Shown: positions 1-21,161, numbered from the stretch's first letter. The stretch: 21,560 nucleotides of DNA from a virus (IMGVR_UViG_2698536476_000013:1-21560), one strand, 5' to 3'. The notes: generated by a model not told the origin, from the sequence alone. Numbers and translations are program-made.

Positions 1-148
1 TGTGTCCATATTACGTGGGTAGGATCACGCAGGGGTCGGCCCATTTGAGCTTCAGATAGGAACGTTTGAATTCCTTTCACAAAATACATCACATACTGAA
101 CGTGAACATTCCCACTTTGATCTTAAGGCCAAAAAGTATGCAGGACTA

Positions 149-1867
149 ATGATTTTTAGGGATAGCTTGAGAGTATTACCTTATGGTCGAGTAGATAATG
201 ATTTCTTCCAGATAGAAGAAAGACGTTCATGGAATGCAGGGCGATATTATTGGTCTAATAGAAGGATTTTTGGTTATATTGGAATTACTCAATCCAGTAA
301 TAAAGAGCTGAAAGATAAGTCGGGGAGAGAGGGATTCATAAGAAACCAGGCTGCAAGAGAACTGAAAACTATTATATCTAATTTGTTAACTGAACTTGCT
401 GATAGATTTTTTGGTTCACGTTCTGATGACCGTAAAGAGCTTTTAGAACAAGTTAAGCGTGAAAAAGAGTTAAGAAAATCTGCTCAACAACAAGCTCGAA
501 AATCAACACAAAAAAGTTTTTCAGAAGCTTTGAAGAATCAGACACCAGTTCTTGATGCTTCCTTGGAGGCTGTTAAAAGGCTGAAAACTAAGCTTGATAA
601 AACTGATGGTTCGTTAGATTTAAACTATCTTAAAATTATAGACAGTGATCTTACAAACTTAGATGCGTTGCGCAGTGAAATTAAAACGCCTATCAAACCT
701 CCAAAACTTGGAATGTATGAAGAGAAATATAGAGACTACAGAGATAAATTTAATGAGTTCTCTGCGTATATTCTACAAATGAAGTTAGCAATTAATAAAC
801 TTGATTCTGAATTAAATAAACTTGAGCCTTCATTGTCAGCGAAAAATCACCTTGAAAAAAATCAAGGTATTATTAATTCTAAACTAACTAAGTTTAATAA
901 CACGATAGAGGAGAAGATACATTCTCTTTTAAAAAAATGGGCCGATGAAATAAAGGTTGATCGAAGTGATTATTATGCTAAAACTATATCAGTTGTTGAT
1001 TCAATAGATAATGATTCACAAATTGAAAATGTGTTTAATTTGCTCGATAGTTTATATGTTGAGTCAGTTGATACCCTAACTTTCAAATATCAATCAATAA
1101 TAAAAGGTCTCGATAGATTATTTGAAGGTATAAACTTAGATTCAGCATTCTCATTATCTGAAGAAGAACGCTCATATTTTGAAGAAAAAGCTAAAAGTTT
1201 AAACGCGCTTGCACAGTTAGGTATTAGTGTTGAGATAATATCTCATGAACTTGAAGAAATGGATTCTATGGTAACCAGAGGACTAAACTCTCTTCCTACT
1301 TCTGTAAAAGAACACCCTGGTTTTTCATTGGCGTTAAATGCTCACAGATCGCTTACTCAACAAATACGTTTCTTATCACCTTTGAAAATATCAGGTTATC
1401 AATCCAGGCAGAGAATAACTGGAAAAAATATCATGGATTATGTCCTGAAGTTCTTTGGGGAGCGTTTCGAACGGCAACGAATAACTATTGAATTTAGTGA
1501 AGAGTTTAAGCAAATCGCAATAACAGATATACCATCAAGGATCTATCCTGTTTTTACTAATATTATCAACAATGCAATGTATTGGGTCAGTCTGTCAAAT
1601 AATAGGCTCATAAAGATTGGTTTTGTGAATTCTTTGGTTATCATAGCAAATTCTGGTCCGGCAATTGATACCGATGATATCCCGCGACTATTTGAACTAT
1701 TTTATAGCAAAAGAGCAAATGGACATGGGGTAGGTCTGTATCTATGTCGAGAAAACCTTGCTGTTGCACATCATAAAATATGGTATTTAGAACCTGATGA
1801 AGGCGATAACTATTTAATAAAAGATGGCGCTAATTTTGTGATCCAGTTCAATGGAGTGGAGTTCTAA
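149..1867 (+). CDS. Soluble histidine-kinase-like protein (HisKA-like H-box plus HATPase_c/GHKL ATP-binding domain), 572 aa
   Basis: The C-terminal third of the translation carries kinase hallmarks: H-box-like 'EIISHELEEM', N-box 'FTNIINNAMYW', G-boxes 'DTDD..LFELF' and 'GHGVGLYL'. The N-terminal ~340 aa is K/E-rich and coiled-coil-like with no obvious transmembrane segment. The frame stays open upstream to nt 23 without a start codon, so a 5' truncation cannot be excluded. Confidence 0.7.
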   Translation: MIFRDSLRVLPYGRVDNDFFQIEERRSWNAGRYYWSNRRIFGYIGITQSSNKELKDKSGREGFIRNQAARELKTIISNLLTELADRFFGSRSDDRKELLEQVKREKELRKSAQQQARKSTQKSFSEALKNQTPVLDASLEAVKRLKTKLDKTDGSLDLNYLKIIDSDLTNLDALRSEIKTPIKPPKLGMYEEKYRDYRDKFNEFSAYILQMKLAINKLDSELNKLEPSLSAKNHLEKNQGIINSKLTKFNNTIEEKIHSLLKKWADEIKVDRSDYYAKTISVVDSIDNDSQIENVFNLLDSLYVESVDTLTFKYQSIIKGLDRLFEGINLDSAFSLSEEERSYFEEKAKSLNALAQLGISVEIISHELEEMDSMVTRGLNSLPTSVKEHPGFSLALNAHRSLTQQIRFLSPLKISGYQSRQRITGKNIMDYVLKFFGERFERQRITIEFSEEFKQIAITDIPSRIYPVFTNIINNAMYWVSLSNNRLIKIGFVNSLVIIANSGPAIDTDDIPRLFELFYSKRANGHGVGLYLCRENLAVAHHKIWYLEPDEGDNYLIKDGANFVIQFNGVEF

Positions 1868-1868
1868 T

Positions 1869-3617
1869 ATGACAGTGGCAAATTATAATTCTCTTGTCCA
1901 GAAAACTTTCTGCGAAAATGCAATTCGTTCCGTTGTCATGATTGATGACGATTTTCTGACGTATTCTGAATCAATCAGGGCGTTGAATAACGAAGTTGAT
2001 TTAGACTACAACAAAATTGACTCATCTAAACGAGCCGCTACTCTTGAGAGCTTTTTTCAATCTAAAAATATGATTTGTGATGTTGACAATGGTTCTGTTA
2101 ATTTCGATGTGGATCGGATTAGAAAATCAGATCTTATTATTGTAGATTATCATCTTGATAATAATGCACCTGATAAAACACTTAAACTATTACAAGATTT
2201 GAAAGACTCCGATCATTTAAATATGATTGTAATATATACTAGAGAGAATTTAGAAACGGTTTGGATGCAGATATCATCGACTCTCAAAGGTGCTCTGGAT
2301 ATCAACAGCTTGATCATTGACTACGATAATGAAGATGTCCAAAGTTATTGGGAAGACGTTGTATTACCGAACTTAAATGATAATGGTAATAAAGCTCTCA
2401 CAAGAGATGAAACAATAGCCTATATTAAAGACAGTAAGCCTTGTAGAAGAATTAAAAGATTAATACATGATGATGCTGTGTTGGAGGATCAAAAGGATAA
2501 AAACTTCATTGCAAAAATGATTGCAGAATATGCTGTGTCTAGAAATGCAATTATTTCTAGCAACACATCTGGCAATGTCATTCGGGGTGATGAAAGCGGA
2601 GTAAAATGGATTCAATGTGGTAATATCTTTGTCTCCCTATTTCATAAGGTTCAAGATGATCATGAAAACGATGGAGATAGGATTTGGCAAACTCTCAATG
2701 ATTCTCTCATTGAATGGAAACCATCTTATTATCAGTTAATAAAATCTGAAATTCAGAATGCAATCGAAGCTGAGGCTTTATCTTTTGTAAATCATTTGGC
2801 TAACGATCATTACGGTCAAGCTGCGTGGTTAAATGAGATATTAAAATCAGACTCGCCTGATATTAGATGTAGAAATATTGACTTTGTATTTGGTAATTTA
2901 TCAGAAGAGCTTTATCAAAGACTTAAAAATAATAATACGCTGGATGAATTTATCAAAAGTGTTTTTGATAGCTATTCAAATGAATACGCTAACAGCGGAG
3001 TTGCTGCATTGCTCCAATATTGCTCTTCAAAAATGGATCTGCCATCAAATAATGATACTTATCACGAAATGTATCATGCTTTAAATATGAATTTGTCTTC
3101 AAAGAATTTTGAAGATGGTCATATTTCTACTGGCACTATTTTCTTTGATACAGAGTCGAACAAATGGTATTTATGTGTATCTGCGGCATGTGATTTGGTT
3201 CCTACTCAGGGTAACGACCCTCACCATGTAAGATTAAGTCCGCACAGGCTCATTAAAGTTCTGGAGCTTTTTAACGCCAGTCAGAGTAAAGCATTGCCAT
3301 TTGCTGAACATTCGAAATATATATATGTAATGCATAAAAATCAAAGAAAATATCTCTCTATTTTCGAAGGGGATAAAACGCTTCCTGTTGTTGATTATAT
3401 GGTGGTGTTGAATCATGGAACAACAGTTGATGGCGAAGAAAAAAATATTATTTCTGCCGTGTTTTTAAGTAATATGGATGGCAACGTGCAAAATGTTCCT
3501 GTCCGACTCAAACTTAAATCTCAACTGAGAACTGGTTATGCAGAAAGATATCAGGCTATAGCGTCTCAGTATAGCTCAAGGATTGGTGTGGATTATGTAT
3601 CAATGATGCTACCATAA
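1869..3617 (+). CDS. Receiver (REC)-domain protein with ~450-aa C-terminal domain of unknown function (candidate effector), 582 aa
   Basis: ATG at 1869 is preceded by GGAGTGGAG and lies 1 nt after the upstream stop (TAATATG), indicating translational coupling; the longest ORF starts at 1851. The N-terminal ~130 aa has receiver-like motifs: acidic pocket 'VVMIDDD', phospho-acceptor-like 'LIIVDYHL', and 'NMIVIYT'. The remainder has no motif I can name. Confidence 0.65.
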   Translation: MTVANYNSLVQKTFCENAIRSVVMIDDDFLTYSESIRALNNEVDLDYNKIDSSKRAATLESFFQSKNMICDVDNGSVNFDVDRIRKSDLIIVDYHLDNNAPDKTLKLLQDLKDSDHLNMIVIYTRENLETVWMQISSTLKGALDINSLIIDYDNEDVQSYWEDVVLPNLNDNGNKALTRDETIAYIKDSKPCRRIKRLIHDDAVLEDQKDKNFIAKMIAEYAVSRNAIISSNTSGNVIRGDESGVKWIQCGNIFVSLFHKVQDDHENDGDRIWQTLNDSLIEWKPSYYQLIKSEIQNAIEAEALSFVNHLANDHYGQAAWLNEILKSDSPDIRCRNIDFVFGNLSEELYQRLKNNNTLDEFIKSVFDSYSNEYANSGVAALLQYCSSKMDLPSNNDTYHEMYHALNMNLSSKNFEDGHISTGTIFFDTESNKWYLCVSAACDLVPTQGNDPHHVRLSPHRLIKVLELFNASQSKALPFAEHSKYIYVMHKNQRKYLSIFEGDKTLPVVDYMVVLNHGTTVDGEEKNIISAVFLSNMDGNVQNVPVRLKLKSQLRTGYAERYQAIASQYSSRIGVDYVSMMLP

Positions 3618-3688
3618 TTATTATATTTTAGGCGTGGTGATTTTTTTTCGCCATGCCTATTTTATATTTATCATCACAATGATGTTGT

Positions 3689-4105
3689 TTATTTTTGTTT
3701 AAGTCTTCTAAGCTTCATGCATTCTAATGAGAATAATAATAGAGTTGTGCTGTATATAAAGCCAGAGTTAGTTAATAACTTTAAATTTAATGCTTCAGGA
3801 TTTTCACTGAGAAAGTGAAAGGCATAAACTAAGTATACAGCTAAAGTAGCCGTTCCAATTGTTGGTCCAATATCGCCTTGATCATGAGGTTCAAGGTTTA
3901 CATTGAACTTGAAGATTAGCCATTCAAATCCCCAAGTAAAAAAAACAACTAATATCATGGCTGCGAATAATTTCGCGATGTTATCTGCTGATGGATTCAT
4001 CAGAACAGATTGTTTCTGAAAAAATTCACAAAGTGAGAGTCCGAAAAAAATAAAAAAAAGTGGTCTGGAACTAAATTTTTCAAAAACTTTGAATAGGGTT
4101 TCCAT
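3689..4105 (-). CDS. Small integral membrane protein (3-4 predicted hydrophobic helices), 138 aa, unknown function
   Basis: Hydrophobic stretches 'LFFIFFGLSLCEFF', 'LFAAMILVVFFTWGFEWLIF', 'ATLAVYLVYAFHFL', 'GFIYSTTLLLFSL'. AT-rich like the neighbouring cargo. Lies 38 bp downstream of the integrase stop on the same strand. Confidence 0.5.
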   Translation of the reverse strand: METLFKVFEKFSSRPLFFIFFGLSLCEFFQKQSVLMNPSADNIAKLFAAMILVVFFTWGFEWLIFKFNVNLEPHDQGDIGPTIGTATLAVYLVYAFHFLSENPEALNLKLLTNSGFIYSTTLLLFSLECMKLRRLKQK

Positions 4106-4143: not shown

Positions 4144-5373
4144 TTAGGCTACCAGAGCATTTGATCTTTGAGCTTGAACGTAATCACTCCACCATTGCAT
4201 CAAACTCTGTCGCTCTATCAGATATTCTGCACGATTGTATGCTGCGATAATTTCATCTTTTTTCGAGTGGGCAAGCGCTGCCTCAAGAACTTCAGCTCTG
4301 AATTTACCAGACTCCTCTGCCGCTGTTCGTGCAATAGAACGCATACCGTGAGCTACAAGCTCGCCTCCGAACCCCATTCGGATGATAGCTGCGTTGGCTG
4401 TTTGTTCATGCATATGATTAAGAGGCGCTTTTATGCTGGGGAAAACCCATTCTCTATGCCCACTTATTGATTTCATTAATTCAAGGATGCGCAAAGCTTC
4501 TTTACTCAAAGGAACTTTGTGAAGCTTTTTCATTTTCATGAAATCAGCAGGAATGTTCCAAATGCTGTTGGTTGTATCAATATCAGACCACCTTGCGCGA
4601 ACGGCTTCACCCGGACGAACCCATGTCAACAATTGCCATTCAATTAGCATACGTGTTTCCAACCGGATTGACGCATTCGTCAAAGATTCCATAAACCTTG
4701 GCAATTCGCTTGGGGGAAGGGCAGGCATATTTTGCTTTTTTGGTTTACTGAATCTTTGACCAAGGTTGTCAGCCGGGTTGAACTCAATAAGTTCTTCAGT
4801 AGCTGCCCACCGGAAGATTTCATTCAGACGTGAAATGATACGGCGTAGAGTTTCCAATACGCCTCGTTGCTCAATAGGATCAAGGTGTTGTTTTAAGAGC
4901 TTAGGTCGGATCTCATTGATAGGGACATTACCCAGACCGGGAAAGACATTTCTCTCTAAGCTGCGCCAGATGTCTGCTGCATGGTCTTGTGAGATACCTG
5001 ATGTCTTTACCTTCTCATCTAACCATTTCCGCGCTACGGCTTGGAGAGTGTGCTCAGTAGCACTCTTTAATGCCTTCGCCTTATCGTTGTTATGGATTTG
5101 GGGATCAACACCATTTGCCAGAAAGGAGAGATATTCATCACGTAAGGCTCTGGCTCTTGCAAGGGTAAGGTGAGGATATGTCCCAAGGCTCATTTTGGTT
5201 CTTTTCTTGCTCACTGGTACTGCATACCTGAAATACCAATTTTTCTTGCCTCCTTTCGCCAAAGGAGCGATTCGTAGAATCAGACCATCACCGTCAAACA
5301 AGTTGATTTCTTTATCGGCTGGCTTGGTGCTTTTGATTTCAGTGTCAGTGAGCTTCTTAGCGATTTTTGCCAT
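4144..5373 (-). CDS. int: Tyrosine recombinase, P4/CP4-57-type integrase
   Basis: N-terminal arm-binding signature 'LTDTEIKSTKPADKEINLFDGDGLILRIA...WYFRY' and C-terminal catalytic region '...HGMRSIARTAAEES...AYNRAEYLIERQSLMQWWSDYV'. The likely start is the ATG at 5373 (GAGGG RBS); the longest ORF extends to 5415. It sits immediately downstream of the ssrA 3'-end fragment, as P4-type integrases do next to their tRNA/tmRNA target. Confidence 0.85.
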   Translation of the reverse strand: MAKIAKKLTDTEIKSTKPADKEINLFDGDGLILRIAPLAKGGKKNWYFRYAVPVSKKRTKMSLGTYPHLTLARARALRDEYLSFLANGVDPQIHNNDKAKALKSATEHTLQAVARKWLDEKVKTSGISQDHAADIWRSLERNVFPGLGNVPINEIRPKLLKQHLDPIEQRGVLETLRRIISRLNEIFRWAATEELIEFNPADNLGQRFSKPKKQNMPALPPSELPRFMESLTNASIRLETRMLIEWQLLTWVRPGEAVRARWSDIDTTNSIWNIPADFMKMKKLHKVPLSKEALRILELMKSISGHREWVFPSIKAPLNHMHEQTANAAIIRMGFGGELVAHGMRSIARTAAEESGKFRAEVLEAALAHSKKDEIIAAYNRAEYLIERQSLMQWWSDYVQAQRSNALVA

Positions 5374-5538
5374 TTTGGGACCCTCGGTTTTTGGACCCTT
5401 CTTAGTGGGTCCCATTCAGGGTGCCATAACTCGTAGTTCTCAGCAATTCTCACTGGACGACAATAGACGTAAAAAAGCCCGCAGAGCTTGTGCTGTGTGG
5501 GCTTAGTAGACTTCATTGAACTTCAAACAACTAAAAAG

Positions 5539-5908: not shown

Positions 5909-6250
5909 ATGAGAACAGTAGCGAGAAGATCGATACAGACGATTGAGCGTCGGACTCAACTCGTCAGTTCTTTTGTTGACTCAAACACAGCAAACGAGTT
6001 CTTCGTGAGAAGACTGAGTGATCGTGTCTCCCCGGCACGTCAGCTGTTTATTGTGACATTGAACAATGAGGTTCGTGACGGTGACGTGATCCCGTTCGCT
6101 GAGATCGCCATGAACAAAGAAAAATTGCGCTATGTTGTGAAGCCAGCAGATCAGTATCCTCAGTATGTAAGCAGTAATCTGCTGAAGAAAATTGAAGCGG
6201 CAATTGCTCTATACATGCAGAAGAACTACAGGGAAATTAACTACCATTAA
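5909..6250 (+). CDS. Hypothetical protein, 113 aa (first gene of moron pair)
   Basis: ATG preceded by GAGGAG RBS at 5897-5902. No recognisable motif. The next gene starts 11 bp after its stop. Confidence 0.55.
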   Translation: MRTVARRSIQTIERRTQLVSSFVDSNTANEFFVRRLSDRVSPARQLFIVTLNNEVRDGDVIPFAEIAMNKEKLRYVVKPADQYPQYVSSNLLKKIEAAIALYMQKNYREINYH

Positions 6251-6261
6251 AAGGTTGCTGA

Positions 6262-7029
6262 ATGGCTCCTGCGTTAATACCTTCATATAACAAGGACTTG
6301 AACATTACGCCATTTGGCGAAAAACGTCTTATTGAGTCATTCTATTTTTTCACTGCCGAGGTTGGCTTACTGAGGGCTGATGAGTACATTGTCAGTTCTG
6401 GTGAGTTTCAGTACTACTTGGATGTGTATCAACTGGGATGTTCCACCGACGACTTTTTTTTAGACTATGGCAGTGACCTTCTTGATTCGAAGGTTCCAAT
6501 GCAGGATCTGGTCAATACCCTCTTGGGTCTTGATATGGTAGACGATAACAAAACGATAAGAATAGGTCGTATACAGTTCAACGACTTTAATTTTATCGAA
6601 GAGAACGGTCAGATGATGACCGGAAAGCAAGTGAAAAGCGCTGTTATCGCACAGGATTTCCAATCAGCAGGTTTGGCGCGTGAGATCTATAAAATGCTTG
6701 CGCGAAAGCATGAGTTTCTCATCTGCGATAACATTCAAAGTATTGCCGGTGGTGCTCTTTGGGCTAGTAGCATCATTCGAATTGCCGAGGTACGGATCTA
6801 CAATTCACGCACGAAGAAATTTATGGACATACTTGGTCCAGGTGCGCGTGGCGTTTCAGGTACTTTGCCATGGAGTGCGAATGATCTGTCTGTAGATGAG
6901 ATTGTTCGCTGGGGTCGTGCGTATGATGATGAAAACTGTTGTCGTCACATTGTACATGTTATCTGTAAGGACCGACTCATTGACGATCAATTTCATGATT
7001 ATGTTTCGATAGGTGGCGCGACAGAATAA
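6262..7029 (+). CDS. Hypothetical protein, 255 aa (second gene of moron pair)
   Basis: Long ORF in operon arrangement with the 113-aa gene. No motif I can name. It ends just before a bidirectional terminator and is convergent with the prophage int. Confidence 0.6.
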   Translation: MAPALIPSYNKDLNITPFGEKRLIESFYFFTAEVGLLRADEYIVSSGEFQYYLDVYQLGCSTDDFFLDYGSDLLDSKVPMQDLVNTLLGLDMVDDNKTIRIGRIQFNDFNFIEENGQMMTGKQVKSAVIAQDFQSAGLAREIYKMLARKHEFLICDNIQSIAGGALWASSIIRIAEVRIYNSRTKKFMDILGPGARGVSGTLPWSANDLSVDEIVRWGRAYDDENCCRHIVHVICKDRLIDDQFHDYVSIGGATE

Positions 7030-7070: not shown

Positions 7071-8276
7071 TCACTTCTTCATTCCAGATTCCATTGCGGT
7101 TTTCCCGTCGTATTCAGCCAGGTATTTACCGTAATTGCGGAACAGCATTTCCGGCCCCTTATGCCCCATCTGCCCGGCAAGCCAGAAAAGGTTTACACCC
7201 TGGCTAATGTGTCTGGTGGCGAATGTGTGGCGCGTCTGGTACGGGTTACGGTAGCGCACACCAGCTTTTTTCAGGGTCGGCACCCATGCTTTTTTACGGA
7301 TAGCGTCGGCGTTCGTCCAGGGTTCTCCCGTTTTCGGATCGCTGAATATGAACTCACTTTTCATAAAGGTGTATTGCTTCTGCGCCTGCAGGGCTGCCAG
7401 CGCCTCACTGTTCAGCTCCACCTTACGGGTACCGGCTTTTGTCTTGGTGCCTTTAAGTACCCCTACGACACTGGCCGCCTGAACGTGGGCTGTGTTCGCG
7501 ATGGTGTCGAGATCAGCCCAGCGCAGCGCGCACAGTTCTGAGCTCCGCAGACCTGTATTGAAAGCAAAGCGGAACAGGTTTTCCCATTCCCTGTACCTGC
7601 AGCTCTGGTAAATGGCAAGGGTCTCCGCTGGCGTGAACGGGTCAACCTCGTAATCGTCGGCGCTCGGGCTACTGTCGATCACGTGGTACCGGCTGGCGCT
7701 GACGAGGGTTACCGGGTTAATGGTCAGCAGGCCATCCGTAACAGCTTCATCAATGGCGCTGCGCAGAAATGACAGGTTATTCCTGATTGTTTTCAGCTTA
7801 GTTTTTCGGCTGGCTATCCAATTTTTTAGTATCGCAGGCGTCAATTCTGTTACATGTAGTTTATGTAGTTCTGATAGTGCTGATAGACATTTTTCGTAAC
7901 CGCCAATGGTTGACGGCGACAGATTACGGTTTATGCAAATTTTCAGGTATTCATCAAGATAGGACTTAATATTTTTGGTTTTCTTTACTACACCGAATAA
8001 CTCCAGTTTTTTGGAATTGGGGAAATATTTCGCATATTCAAACGTTCCGCTGGCGATCTGATTTTGTATCTCCCCTAGCAGGCGCTCAGCATATTTTATA
8101 CCACGTGTATTTGCCTCAAGCCGAGATAGGGGCTCCCTGCAAAGAACCCCTTTATATGTGAAAGTGATAACTAGTGTTGAAGCAGTTTTATGCTTACGAA
8201 TAGTTACTCCTCTTGGCAGAGATAATAATCCTTGTTCTTTCTTGCCCATTTTGAAACCTCTATTAAGTCGACCCAA
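7071..8276 (-). CDS. int: Tyrosine integrase, lambdoid phage type
   Basis: C-terminal catalytic signature '...RHTFATRHISQGVNLFWLAGQMGHKGPEMLFRNYGKY' (R..H..R..Y) with an upstream SAM-like core-binding region. An alternative start at 8249 ('MGKKEQ') is possible. Confidence 0.85.
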   Translation of the reverse strand: MGRLNRGFKMGKKEQGLLSLPRGVTIRKHKTASTLVITFTYKGVLCREPLSRLEANTRGIKYAERLLGEIQNQIASGTFEYAKYFPNSKKLELFGVVKKTKNIKSYLDEYLKICINRNLSPSTIGGYEKCLSALSELHKLHVTELTPAILKNWIASRKTKLKTIRNNLSFLRSAIDEAVTDGLLTINPVTLVSASRYHVIDSSPSADDYEVDPFTPAETLAIYQSCRYREWENLFRFAFNTGLRSSELCALRWADLDTIANTAHVQAASVVGVLKGTKTKAGTRKVELNSEALAALQAQKQYTFMKSEFIFSDPKTGEPWTNADAIRKKAWVPTLKKAGVRYRNPYQTRHTFATRHISQGVNLFWLAGQMGHKGPEMLFRNYGKYLAEYDGKTAMESGMKK

Positions 8277-20909: not shown

Positions 20910-20985
20910 GGCCCTTTAGCTCAGTGGTGAGAGCGAGCGACTCATAATCGCCAGGTCGCTGGTTCAAATCCAGCAAGGGCCACCA
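20910..20985 (+). tRNA. tRNA with CAU anticodon, Ile2 (lysidine)-type, resembling ileX/ileZ; includes CCA
   Basis: Cloverleaf folded by hand: acceptor GGCCCTT/AAGGGCC, D-stem GCTC/GAGC, anticodon loop CTCATAA, T-arm GCTGG-TTCAAAT-CCAGC, 3' ACCA. Confidence 0.85.
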
Positions 20986-20994
20986 TATCACATA

Positions 20995-21071
20995 CCGCCA
21001 TTAGCTCATCGGGATAGAGCGTCAGCCTTCGAAGCTGGCTGTGCGGGGTTCAAGTCCCCGATGGCGGTCCA
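20995..21071 (+). tRNA. tRNA-Arg (anticodon UCG), argN-like; includes CCA
   Basis: Acceptor CCGCCAT/ATGGCGG, anticodon stem TCAGC/GCTGG with loop CTTCGAA, T-arm CGGGG-TTCAAGT-CCCCG, discriminator T plus CCA. Confidence 0.8.
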
Positions 21072-21084
21072 TTATCAGCATCAT

Positions 21085-21161
21085 GCGTTGTTAGCTCAGC
21101 CGGACAGAGCAATTGCCTTCTAAGCAATCGGTCACTGGTTCGAATCCAGTACAACGCGCCA
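21085..21161 (+). tRNA. tRNA-Arg (anticodon UCU), argO-like; includes CCA
   Basis: Acceptor GCGTTGT/ACAACGC, anticodon stem ATTGC/GCAAT with loop CTTCTAA, T-arm ACTGG-TTCGAAT-CCAGT, discriminator G plus CCA. Confidence 0.85.

Follow-up and report, generated by a model that had tools for sequence, protein, structure and literature searches.

What follows the receiver domain in a receiver-like protein whose C-terminal half matches no known output? The question is raised by a gene at positions 1869–3617 of the viral DNA stretch IMGVR_UViG_2698536476_000013:1-21560, here called the window (21,560 nt). In the encoded protein, a complete receiver that is longer than its database model is followed by about 300 residues (amino acids (aa) 291–588) of strongly conserved sequence, and in intact relatives the gene stands in a constant trio with a DNA methylase gene and a kinase gene. 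We read aa 291–588 as the phosphorylation-gated effector output of a methylation-keyed, restriction-like defence module. For the effector readings taken jointly, we hold this to be possible and somewhat short of probable.

Receiver gene and extent of the receiver fold

The gene lies in a single plus-strand open reading frame (ORF), 1851–3617, of 588 aa. Residues are numbered here from that ORF; the corresponding numbers in WP_000214990.1 are lower by 6. The mechanical ORF start at 1851 is probably not the true one. The ATG at 1869 is the likelier start because the Shine-Dalgarno-like sequence GGAGTGGAG lies 7 nt before it, because the stop codon of the upstream kinase-like gene is one base away, and because homologues begin there. 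It is also the RefSeq start. As far as the sequence goes, the spacing of 1 nt suggests translational coupling with the kinase-like gene. The parts of the gene are as follows:

1869..3617, + strand: receiver-like gene, WP_000214990.1, 582 aa (588 aa in the mechanical ORF from 1851)
1923..2294, + strand: receiver core, strands 1–4, aa 25–148
2295..2600, + strand: helical insert within the receiver, aa 149–250 (model helices 151–232)
2601..2720, + strand: receiver strand 5 and helix 5, aa 251–290, with the invariant K266 (2646–2648)
2721..3098, + strand: helical sub-domain, aa 291–416 (model helices 293–416)
3099..3614, + strand: beta-barrel sub-domain, C-terminal helix and tail, aa 417–588

The only Pfam domain detected was Response_reg_2 (PF19192) at aa 25–181 (109.1 bits against a gathering cut-off of 27; E = 3.7e-31). 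Because the Pfam model stops at residue 181, it does not cover receiver strand 5 and helix 5. The AlphaFold2 model of the protein, built with 56 homologues, was confident (predicted local distance difference test (pLDDT) 85.8; predicted template modelling score (pTM) 0.80). It placed strands 1–4 at aa 27–130, helices at 151–232, further strands up to 259–265, immediately before K266, and a helix at 274–289. According to this model, the receiver fold extends to about residue 290 and includes a 100-aa helical insert, strand 5, and helix 5. The sequence-only reading had assigned about 450 residues at 2260–3617 to the domain after the receiver. In the model, part of that interval belongs to the receiver itself, and the orphan part shrinks to about 300 residues (291–588) arranged in two sub-domains.

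The phospho-acceptor constellation of the receiver is complete: two acidic residues after strand 1 (D32/D33, 1944–1949), an Asp after strand 3 (the phospho-acceptor D99, 2145–2147), a Thr after strand 4 (T130, 2238–2240), and a Lys after strand 5, for which the model points to K266. In the family alignment, D32, D33, D99, T130, and K266 were all invariant. The helical insert was the most variable segment of the protein, with 0.46–0.51 nonsynonymous substitutions per site (dN) and the lowest column conservation (0.32).

Orphan C-terminal part

The orphan part was delimited as aa 291–588 because the modelled receiver fold runs to about residue 290. A separate AlphaFold model of these residues alone was also confident (pLDDT 86.1; pTM 0.79) and showed the two sub-domains. 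The helical bundle opens with a nearly invariant S-E-I-Q-N helix (aa 299–303, nt 2745–2759) together with E306, and closes at the invariant N412 (3084–3086). In the model it is followed by a beta-rich barrel capped by a C-terminal helix (aa 417–575) and a short tail. The barrel part carries the motifs G428-T429 (3132–3137), S444-x-A-C-D448 (3180–3194), Q558-L-R560 (3522–3530), and R577-x-G-x-D581 (3579–3593).

An alignment of homologues, as had been proposed from the sequence alone, revealed residues that stay invariant or nearly so down to 21–26% identity: N412, G428, T429, S444, A446, C447, D448, P464, Q558, L559, R560, R566, R577, G579, and D581. The hairpin region at aa ~520–555 was hypervariable and contained large insertions. 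Constraint was compared as dN per segment, dS being saturated and a dN/dS ratio thus unavailable. Among close relatives, the last 170 aa had the lowest dN in the protein (0.08–0.11, vs. 0.13–0.15 for the receiver core), and conservation of the C-terminal domain equalled that of the receiver core. The barrel is under strong purifying constraint. The protein is acidic, with a barrel that is about neutral.

The two peptides quoted in the sequence-only reading were both found, HEMYHALNMNL at aa 405–415 (nt 3063–3095) and CVSAACDLVPTQGNDPHHVRLSPH at aa 442–465 (nt 3174–3245). The conserved His clusters that they were thought to represent were not: within the quoted strings, invariance or near-invariance is limited to L411, N412, S444, A446, C447, D448, V450, and P464, and no quoted His is conserved. 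The His/Cys/Asp clusters do not form a catalytic signature.

The impression that no known motif follows the receiver was borne out by database searches. Residues 182–588 had no match in Pfam, including a scan of 21 divergent members of the family, nothing in NCBIfam, nothing meaningful in PADLOC, and no match to PDB sequences by either single sequence or profile. PHROGs returned two families of "unknown function" only, both of which are the E. coli receiver gene itself. The structure prediction and Foldseek comparison suggested earlier gave a confident model of the orphan part without a match at E ≤ 0.001, and the helical sub-domain had generic helical-bundle matches only. Restriction-nuclease folds or motifs of the PD-(D/E)xK, HNH, PLD, and GIY-YIG types were not found in the orphan part. 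A well-known regulatory output was not found there either: the region after the receiver contains no OmpR/PhoB winged helix-turn-helix, NarL helix-turn-helix, LytTR, GGDEF, EAL, or CheB domain.

The beta sub-domain showed a grey-zone structural likeness to the MazF/CcdB toxin fold, which makes the earlier term "new effector fold" too strong. Sequence homology to MazF was rejected, as hhalign against a 26-sequence MazF alignment gave a probability of 0.09%, and neither PF02452 (MazF) nor PF01845 (CcdB) matched, including in the 21 members scanned. The orphan beta domain is ~60 residues larger than MazF, Kid(PemK), and CcdB, and the positions of the catalytic Arg and Thr of MazF do not match its conserved residues. 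Unlike these toxins, it is fused to a receiver, and no small conserved ORF upstream or downstream that could correspond to their cognate antitoxin was common to the receiver-gene loci. Given the absence of a Foldseek match, the hhalign probability, and the mismatched catalytic positions, we therefore treat the likeness as a grey-zone fold resemblance and not as membership in the MazF family. That toxins are the only structural neighbours of the modelled sub-domain fits an effector role weakly.

Distribution of the receiver protein

An exhaustive HMMER search with the barrel profile yielded 650 clusters at 50% identity, 513 of them at E ≤ 1e-10. Among the 150 listed matches of normal length, the domain formed the C-terminus of proteins of 500–770 aa; shorter matches looked like gene fragments. 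A word-indexed profile search returned 187 proteins, and PF19192 was present in all 120 of the listed matches of normal length. Conversely, 55 loci were obtained when metagenomes were scanned using only the receiver as seed, and all complete ORFs among them had the same C-terminal domain. Neither search direction found the C-terminal domain in another architecture or the receiver with another C-terminus. Two-way searches without exceptions therefore indicate that the receiver and the orphan domain form an obligatory unit.

Split or truncated alleles were met as P0008 (453 aa, ending in ...GNDPHH; a cluster of 1605 sequences) and phrog_30547, which corresponds to residues 454–582. These suggest that such alleles, with a break near window positions 3219–3245 (aa ~459), are widespread in E. 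coli; the window copy is intact.

Trio of methylase, kinase, and receiver genes

In intact relatives, the receiver gene forms a fixed pair with the preceding gene, which encodes a 970–1020 aa protein with the domain order HATPase_c_3 - HEF_HK - HATPase_c; a C5 DNA methyltransferase gene (PF00145) adjoins. This layout was present in Pantoea (the P. dispersa locus L002, 5841–11746, is an intact example), in integrative and conjugative elements (ICEs) of Salmonella, in a Tn7-like element of Acinetobacter, and in an Acidobacteriaceae genome. The trio was surveyed with hidden Markov models (HMMs) built from the genes of those intact loci. All three genes were adjacent in 33 genome loci (32 distinct contigs) and in 45 of the 55 metagenome loci. 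Loci short of one gene were contig ends, except for L011, a copy of the truncated E. coli locus, and the degraded L042. Hosts of the genome loci belong to many orders and include Enterobacterales, Acinetobacter, Sphingomonadales, Acidobacteriaceae, Planctomycetota, and Myxococcales. The mobile settings of the module, of a kind usual for defence cargo, are a Tn7-like element, ICEs, and integrase islands. The methylase gene varied in its placement, lying downstream in either orientation in some loci and upstream on the strand of the pair in others, and the methylases belonged to different subfamilies (HMM E-values from 1e-200 to 1e-50).

Clustering of the other ORFs within 3 kb of the 33 loci revealed two classic accessories of restriction-modification, Vsr (12/33) and a C-protein-like HTH_3 protein (5/33), besides an HNH_2 protein (4/33) and otherwise clade-specific ORFs. 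No fourth constant gene, such as a hidden nuclease, was found among these clustered neighbours. Most loci lack a restriction gene that could be regulated and have the methylase only, sometimes with Vsr. An intact version in E. coli, for example that of strain SK1144 (L047, 5776–11851; WP_000643690, WP_000236931, and WP_000886597), consists of a methylase, a 989-aa ATP-binding protein, and a 607-aa receiver protein, with an HNH_2 neighbour.

Several single loci deviated in detail. An HNH_2 protein annotated as "phosphorothioated DNA-binding restriction endonuclease" stands beside some intact modules, in L047 (12096–12968; SK1144), L016, L020, L040, and L044; it could be either a type IV-like enzyme in its own right or a fourth component that is optional. 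The kinase fusion gene of L038 and L064 is divided between two ORFs (472 + 587 aa and 606 + 445 aa, respectively), perhaps through decay or perhaps as a natural two-piece form, and two methylase matches were present in L038. L011 is a 5.6-kb contig (DAIPZW010000118.1) from a metagenome-assembled genome (MAG) labelled "Bacteroidales bacterium". Over the receiver C-terminal region it matches the E. coli locus with 100% identity, and the same truncated 572-aa kinase ORF is present; most likely it is mis-binned E. coli DNA.

Comparison with described systems

The PF19192 and PF19191 families were named by Bellieny-Rabelo, Pretorius & Moleleki 2021 (PMC8011034). That work, done purely in silico, found the two families linked to one another as well as to C5 methylases, Vsr, and HNH_2, with a 91.6% linkage of the gene to an upstream HEF_HK + HATPase_c gene, and speculates on a two-component-like system related to paraMORCs that regulates restriction-modification via a signalling cascade. 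The window gene belongs to this Response_reg_2/HEF_HK pair: the upstream ORF 149–1867 has PF19191 and PF02518, and the links to C5 methylase, Vsr, and HNH_2 given in that paper were reproduced here. The window differs in that the kinase partner is without its usual HATPase_c_3 half and the methylase is missing. In the consulted sections of PMC8011034 and by term search of its text, the ~300 residues after the receiver are not treated. The receiver family and its kinase partner are thus already known (PMC8011034); new is a putative, undescribed output domain of the receiver protein, tied to a methylase and a MORC-kinase fusion. Full-text literature searches, made with Pfam names and accessions, RefSeq protein accessions, and keywords, found no description or test of the C-terminal part of the family. 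The systems WonAB/VcSduA (PMC12137116) and those of a 2025 modularity screen (10.64898/2025.12.08.692795) were considered and set aside as unrelated.

Detocs consists of the kinase DtcA, the buffer receiver DtcB, and the receiver-effector DtcC, and in it phosphotransfer switches on a receiver-fused toxic ATP nucleosidase (Rousset et al., 10.1101/2023.01.24.525353). It is the nearest tested analogue; both systems combine a kinase with a receiver fused to an output that does not bind DNA. Several features separate them. In Detocs, DtcB lies between the kinase and effector genes, whereas no such ORF is present here, the kinase stop and receiver start being 1 nt apart, likewise in relatives. The N-terminus of the Detocs kinase is a TPR sensor; that of intact relatives here is a HATPase_c_3 MORC-like GHKL ATPase. 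The Detocs output is a PNP nucleosidase, whereas aa 182–588 have no match to PNP or another known effector in Pfam, PADLOC, or PDB. A DNA methylase as the obligatory third gene and an output that is never swapped belong to the present family and not to Detocs.

PrrC, which acts with EcoprrI, is an anticodon nuclease of ABC-ATPase-like type that binds a type I enzyme, and no phosphorelay is known to take part. The likeness to the present module lies in the coupling of toxin activity to a DNA methylation/restriction apparatus; no relation in sequence or fold is known.

Iyer, Abhiman & Aravind 2008 (PMC2292703) place paraMORC ATPases in restriction-modification operons and propose that they loop or reorganise DNA. 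The operons described there resemble the present loci in that a GHKL/MORC-type ATPase is tied to cytosine methylases and Vsr on mobile islands. In those operons the partners of the ATPase are recognisable nucleases or SF2 helicases; in the present loci, the ATPase forms one polypeptide with a histidine kinase, and the receiver protein is the sole further constant protein. A term search of the text of PMC2292703 returned no mention of a receiver or two-component system.

Possible function of the C-terminal part

We infer a defence function of the module, the direction of its signalling, and an effector activity of its last protein. The reading of a restriction-like module with its output in aa 291–588 rests on the constant methylase, the frequent Vsr and C-protein companions, and the mobile-cargo locations, on the lack of another candidate executor, and on intact phosphorelay chemistry that leads into a strongly constrained C-terminal domain. 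Detocs supplies a precedent for phosphotransfer from a kinase to a receiver that turns on a fused toxic effector. In the proposed sequence of events, the methylase would mark host DNA, and the MORC-like ATPase half of the kinase would engage DNA that lacks the mark. The HEF_HK histidine would be autophosphorylated as a result and the phosphate handed on to D99 of the receiver. A conformational change might then reach the C-terminal beta-barrel by way of helix 5 and the conserved SEIQN helix, and the barrel would act on a nucleic acid or a nucleic-acid enzyme and bring about restriction or growth arrest. Chemically, the C-terminal domain could cleave DNA, cleave RNA, poison a nucleic-acid enzyme, or serve as a non-catalytic adaptor for the MORC-like ATPase. 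The output position assumed in the sequence-only reading agrees with the phospho-acceptor receiver and with the constant histidine-kinase fusion and C5 methylase partners; its toxic or enzymatic activity was overstated.

Several points weigh against an effector output in aa 291–588. The orphan part shows no known nuclease or toxin motif and no Foldseek match at the threshold given above, and the full-text searches found no experimental work on the family. The effector was never exchanged for another domain in the 55 receiver-seeded loci, so the modularity argument used for Detocs is missing. An acidic protein with an about neutral barrel does not suggest strong nucleic-acid binding. The methylases vary between loci in subfamily, position, and orientation, which leaves a common target recognition unexplained.

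Part of the same evidence can be taken differently. The C-terminal domain might be an adaptor, or a reader of DNA or of its methylation state, that recruits or licenses the MORC-like ATPase as the executor; unmethylated incoming DNA would then be clamped, compacted, or silenced without cleavage, in the way of eukaryotic MORCs or of BREX-type systems that do not cleave. Neither protein showed a nuclease-like fold or motif, and a combination of receiver and C-terminal domain that is obligatory and never swapped is more in keeping with a structural partner than with a modular effector. Large insertions in the hypervariable hairpin at aa ~520–555 are of a kind often seen in specificity elements, and PMC2292703 proposes that paraMORC ATPases loop or reorganise DNA in restriction-modification contexts. 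An acidic to neutral domain would be unusual for a DNA reader, however, and N412, C447, D448, R560, R577, and D581 resemble an active or ligand site more than a variable recognition surface. Moreover, in two-component systems the usual end point of kinase-to-receiver signalling is the output domain that the receiver itself carries. We consider such an adaptor unlikely. An ordinary regulatory two-component system, in which the receiver protein controls transcription of neighbouring restriction-modification genes, appears very improbable. The kinase-plus-receiver architecture is that of such a system, and a cascade controlling restriction-modification systems is what the discussion in PMC8011034 proposes. 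Against it stand the acidity of the protein, the separate C-protein-like HTH_3 regulator that several loci have of their own, and the absence from most loci of any restriction gene to regulate beside the methylase and the occasional Vsr.

A bolder form of the effector interpretation is that the trio represents a new class of methylation-keyed immunity, in which a MORC-like DNA-clamping ATPase reports unmodified DNA by His-Asp phosphorelay to a receiver-gated effector, and in which the invariant pattern N...GT...SxACD...QLR...RxGxD on a MazF/CcdB-like barrel marks an undescribed nucleic-acid-targeting enzyme or toxin. We regard this form as rather doubtful. If it were true, restriction or abortive infection would be run by two-component signalling and not by a conventional nuclease-ATPase complex, in a widespread module (650 clusters at 50% identity) that spans several phyla and travels on ICEs, Tn7-like elements, and integrase islands. 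The module would also bring together a DNA methylation self-mark, a MORC-type ATPase, whose eukaryotic relatives silence foreign DNA, and a His-Asp phosphorelay, which are normally separate. The C-terminal domain is the only unassigned piece, and in this scheme the biochemical output must therefore lie there; to define it could reveal an effector of a new type and make MORC function accessible in a tractable bacterial model.

State of the locus in the window

The window is 100% identical to the chromosome of E. coli O103:H2 strain PV16-126, and among 5426 complete E. coli genomes, ~560 contain its first 5.6 kb at ≥ 99% identity. Bases 1–4000 form a low-GC patch (GC 0.33–0.35 vs. ~0.5 beyond) with two plus-strand genes, overlapping-to-adjacent, namely ORF 149–1867 (572 aa) and ORF 1851–3617 (588 aa). 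The part upstream of the receiver gene comprises the following:

1..148, no strand assigned: IS3 junction followed by an out-of-frame remnant, with a stop at codon 7 of the frame; an IS3 transposase is annotated directly upstream in NZ_AP038987.1 and NZ_CP043486.1
149..1867, + strand: N-terminally truncated kinase-like partner, 572 aa (Pfam PF19191, E = 1.2e-5; PF02518, E = 9.8e-11)

The segment 1..148 marks the site at which the N-terminus of the kinase and the methylase gene were lost. The first codon of the kinase-like ORF is an internal Met that follows an in-frame stop, and the whole HATPase_c_3 (MORC-like) half is missing; the HEF_HK phospho-acceptor helix with its H-box (SHELEEM) and the HATPase_c catalytic domain are kept. 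No methylase gene was found in the window, and in the source genome an IS3 element and a ygaQ remnant lie upstream. IS3 stands directly left of the window, and the truncated arrangement is identical in both genomes inspected, one of them strain SL112. With the methylase gene and the kinase's ATPase half both lost, the module in the window is inactive as a system. Judged from its sequence, the window copy (E. coli O26/O103/O111) is a relic as a system. A truncated kinase in a locus without methylase is what would be expected if an intact pair were harmful in the absence of methylation, and it represents one event only.

For the window copy alone, it is slightly on the probable side that the gene is a functionless leftover of a decayed island, maintained by clonal descent and not by selection. 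The losses beside IS3 and the single truncated arrangement shared by both inspected genomes, in a locus so nearly identical across the ~560 genomes, agree with this, as do truncated or split receiver alleles, which appear common (P0008, phrog_30547), and insertion sequence elements that break the locus in some strains. On the other hand, the receiver ORF of the window is intact and retains every family-invariant residue. The kinase fragment keeps its dimerization/phosphotransfer (DHp) and catalytic domains and is apparently coupled in translation to the receiver gene, so that a residual or co-opted function is possible.

Island and neighbouring genes

Downstream of the receiver gene, the remaining part of the island carries two features:

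3689..4105, − strand: predicted membrane protein of 138 aa, no Pfam match, matches phrog_6556
4144..5415, − strand: integrase of the small low-GC island carrying the module

The 138-aa ORF is convergent to the receiver gene and is followed by the integrase. It is kept directly downstream of the receiver gene in L012 and L014–L016 (Citrobacter, Serratia, Erwinia, and an Enterobacterales MAG), and according to the ORF clustering of loci it is limited to the enterobacterial clade that includes the window. The protein may be a clade-specific accessory of the module. In strain SL112 the island is minimal and its integrase lies directly at ssrA (tmRNA); a tmRNA was not detected in the window.

Downstream of the island integrase are two ORFs with no Pfam match (5909–6250 and 6262–7029), a second integrase (7071–8276, − strand), and then a lambdoid prophage. 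The prophage part includes, at 20910–21161, three clustered tRNA genes (Met-CAT, Arg-TCG, and Arg-TCT).

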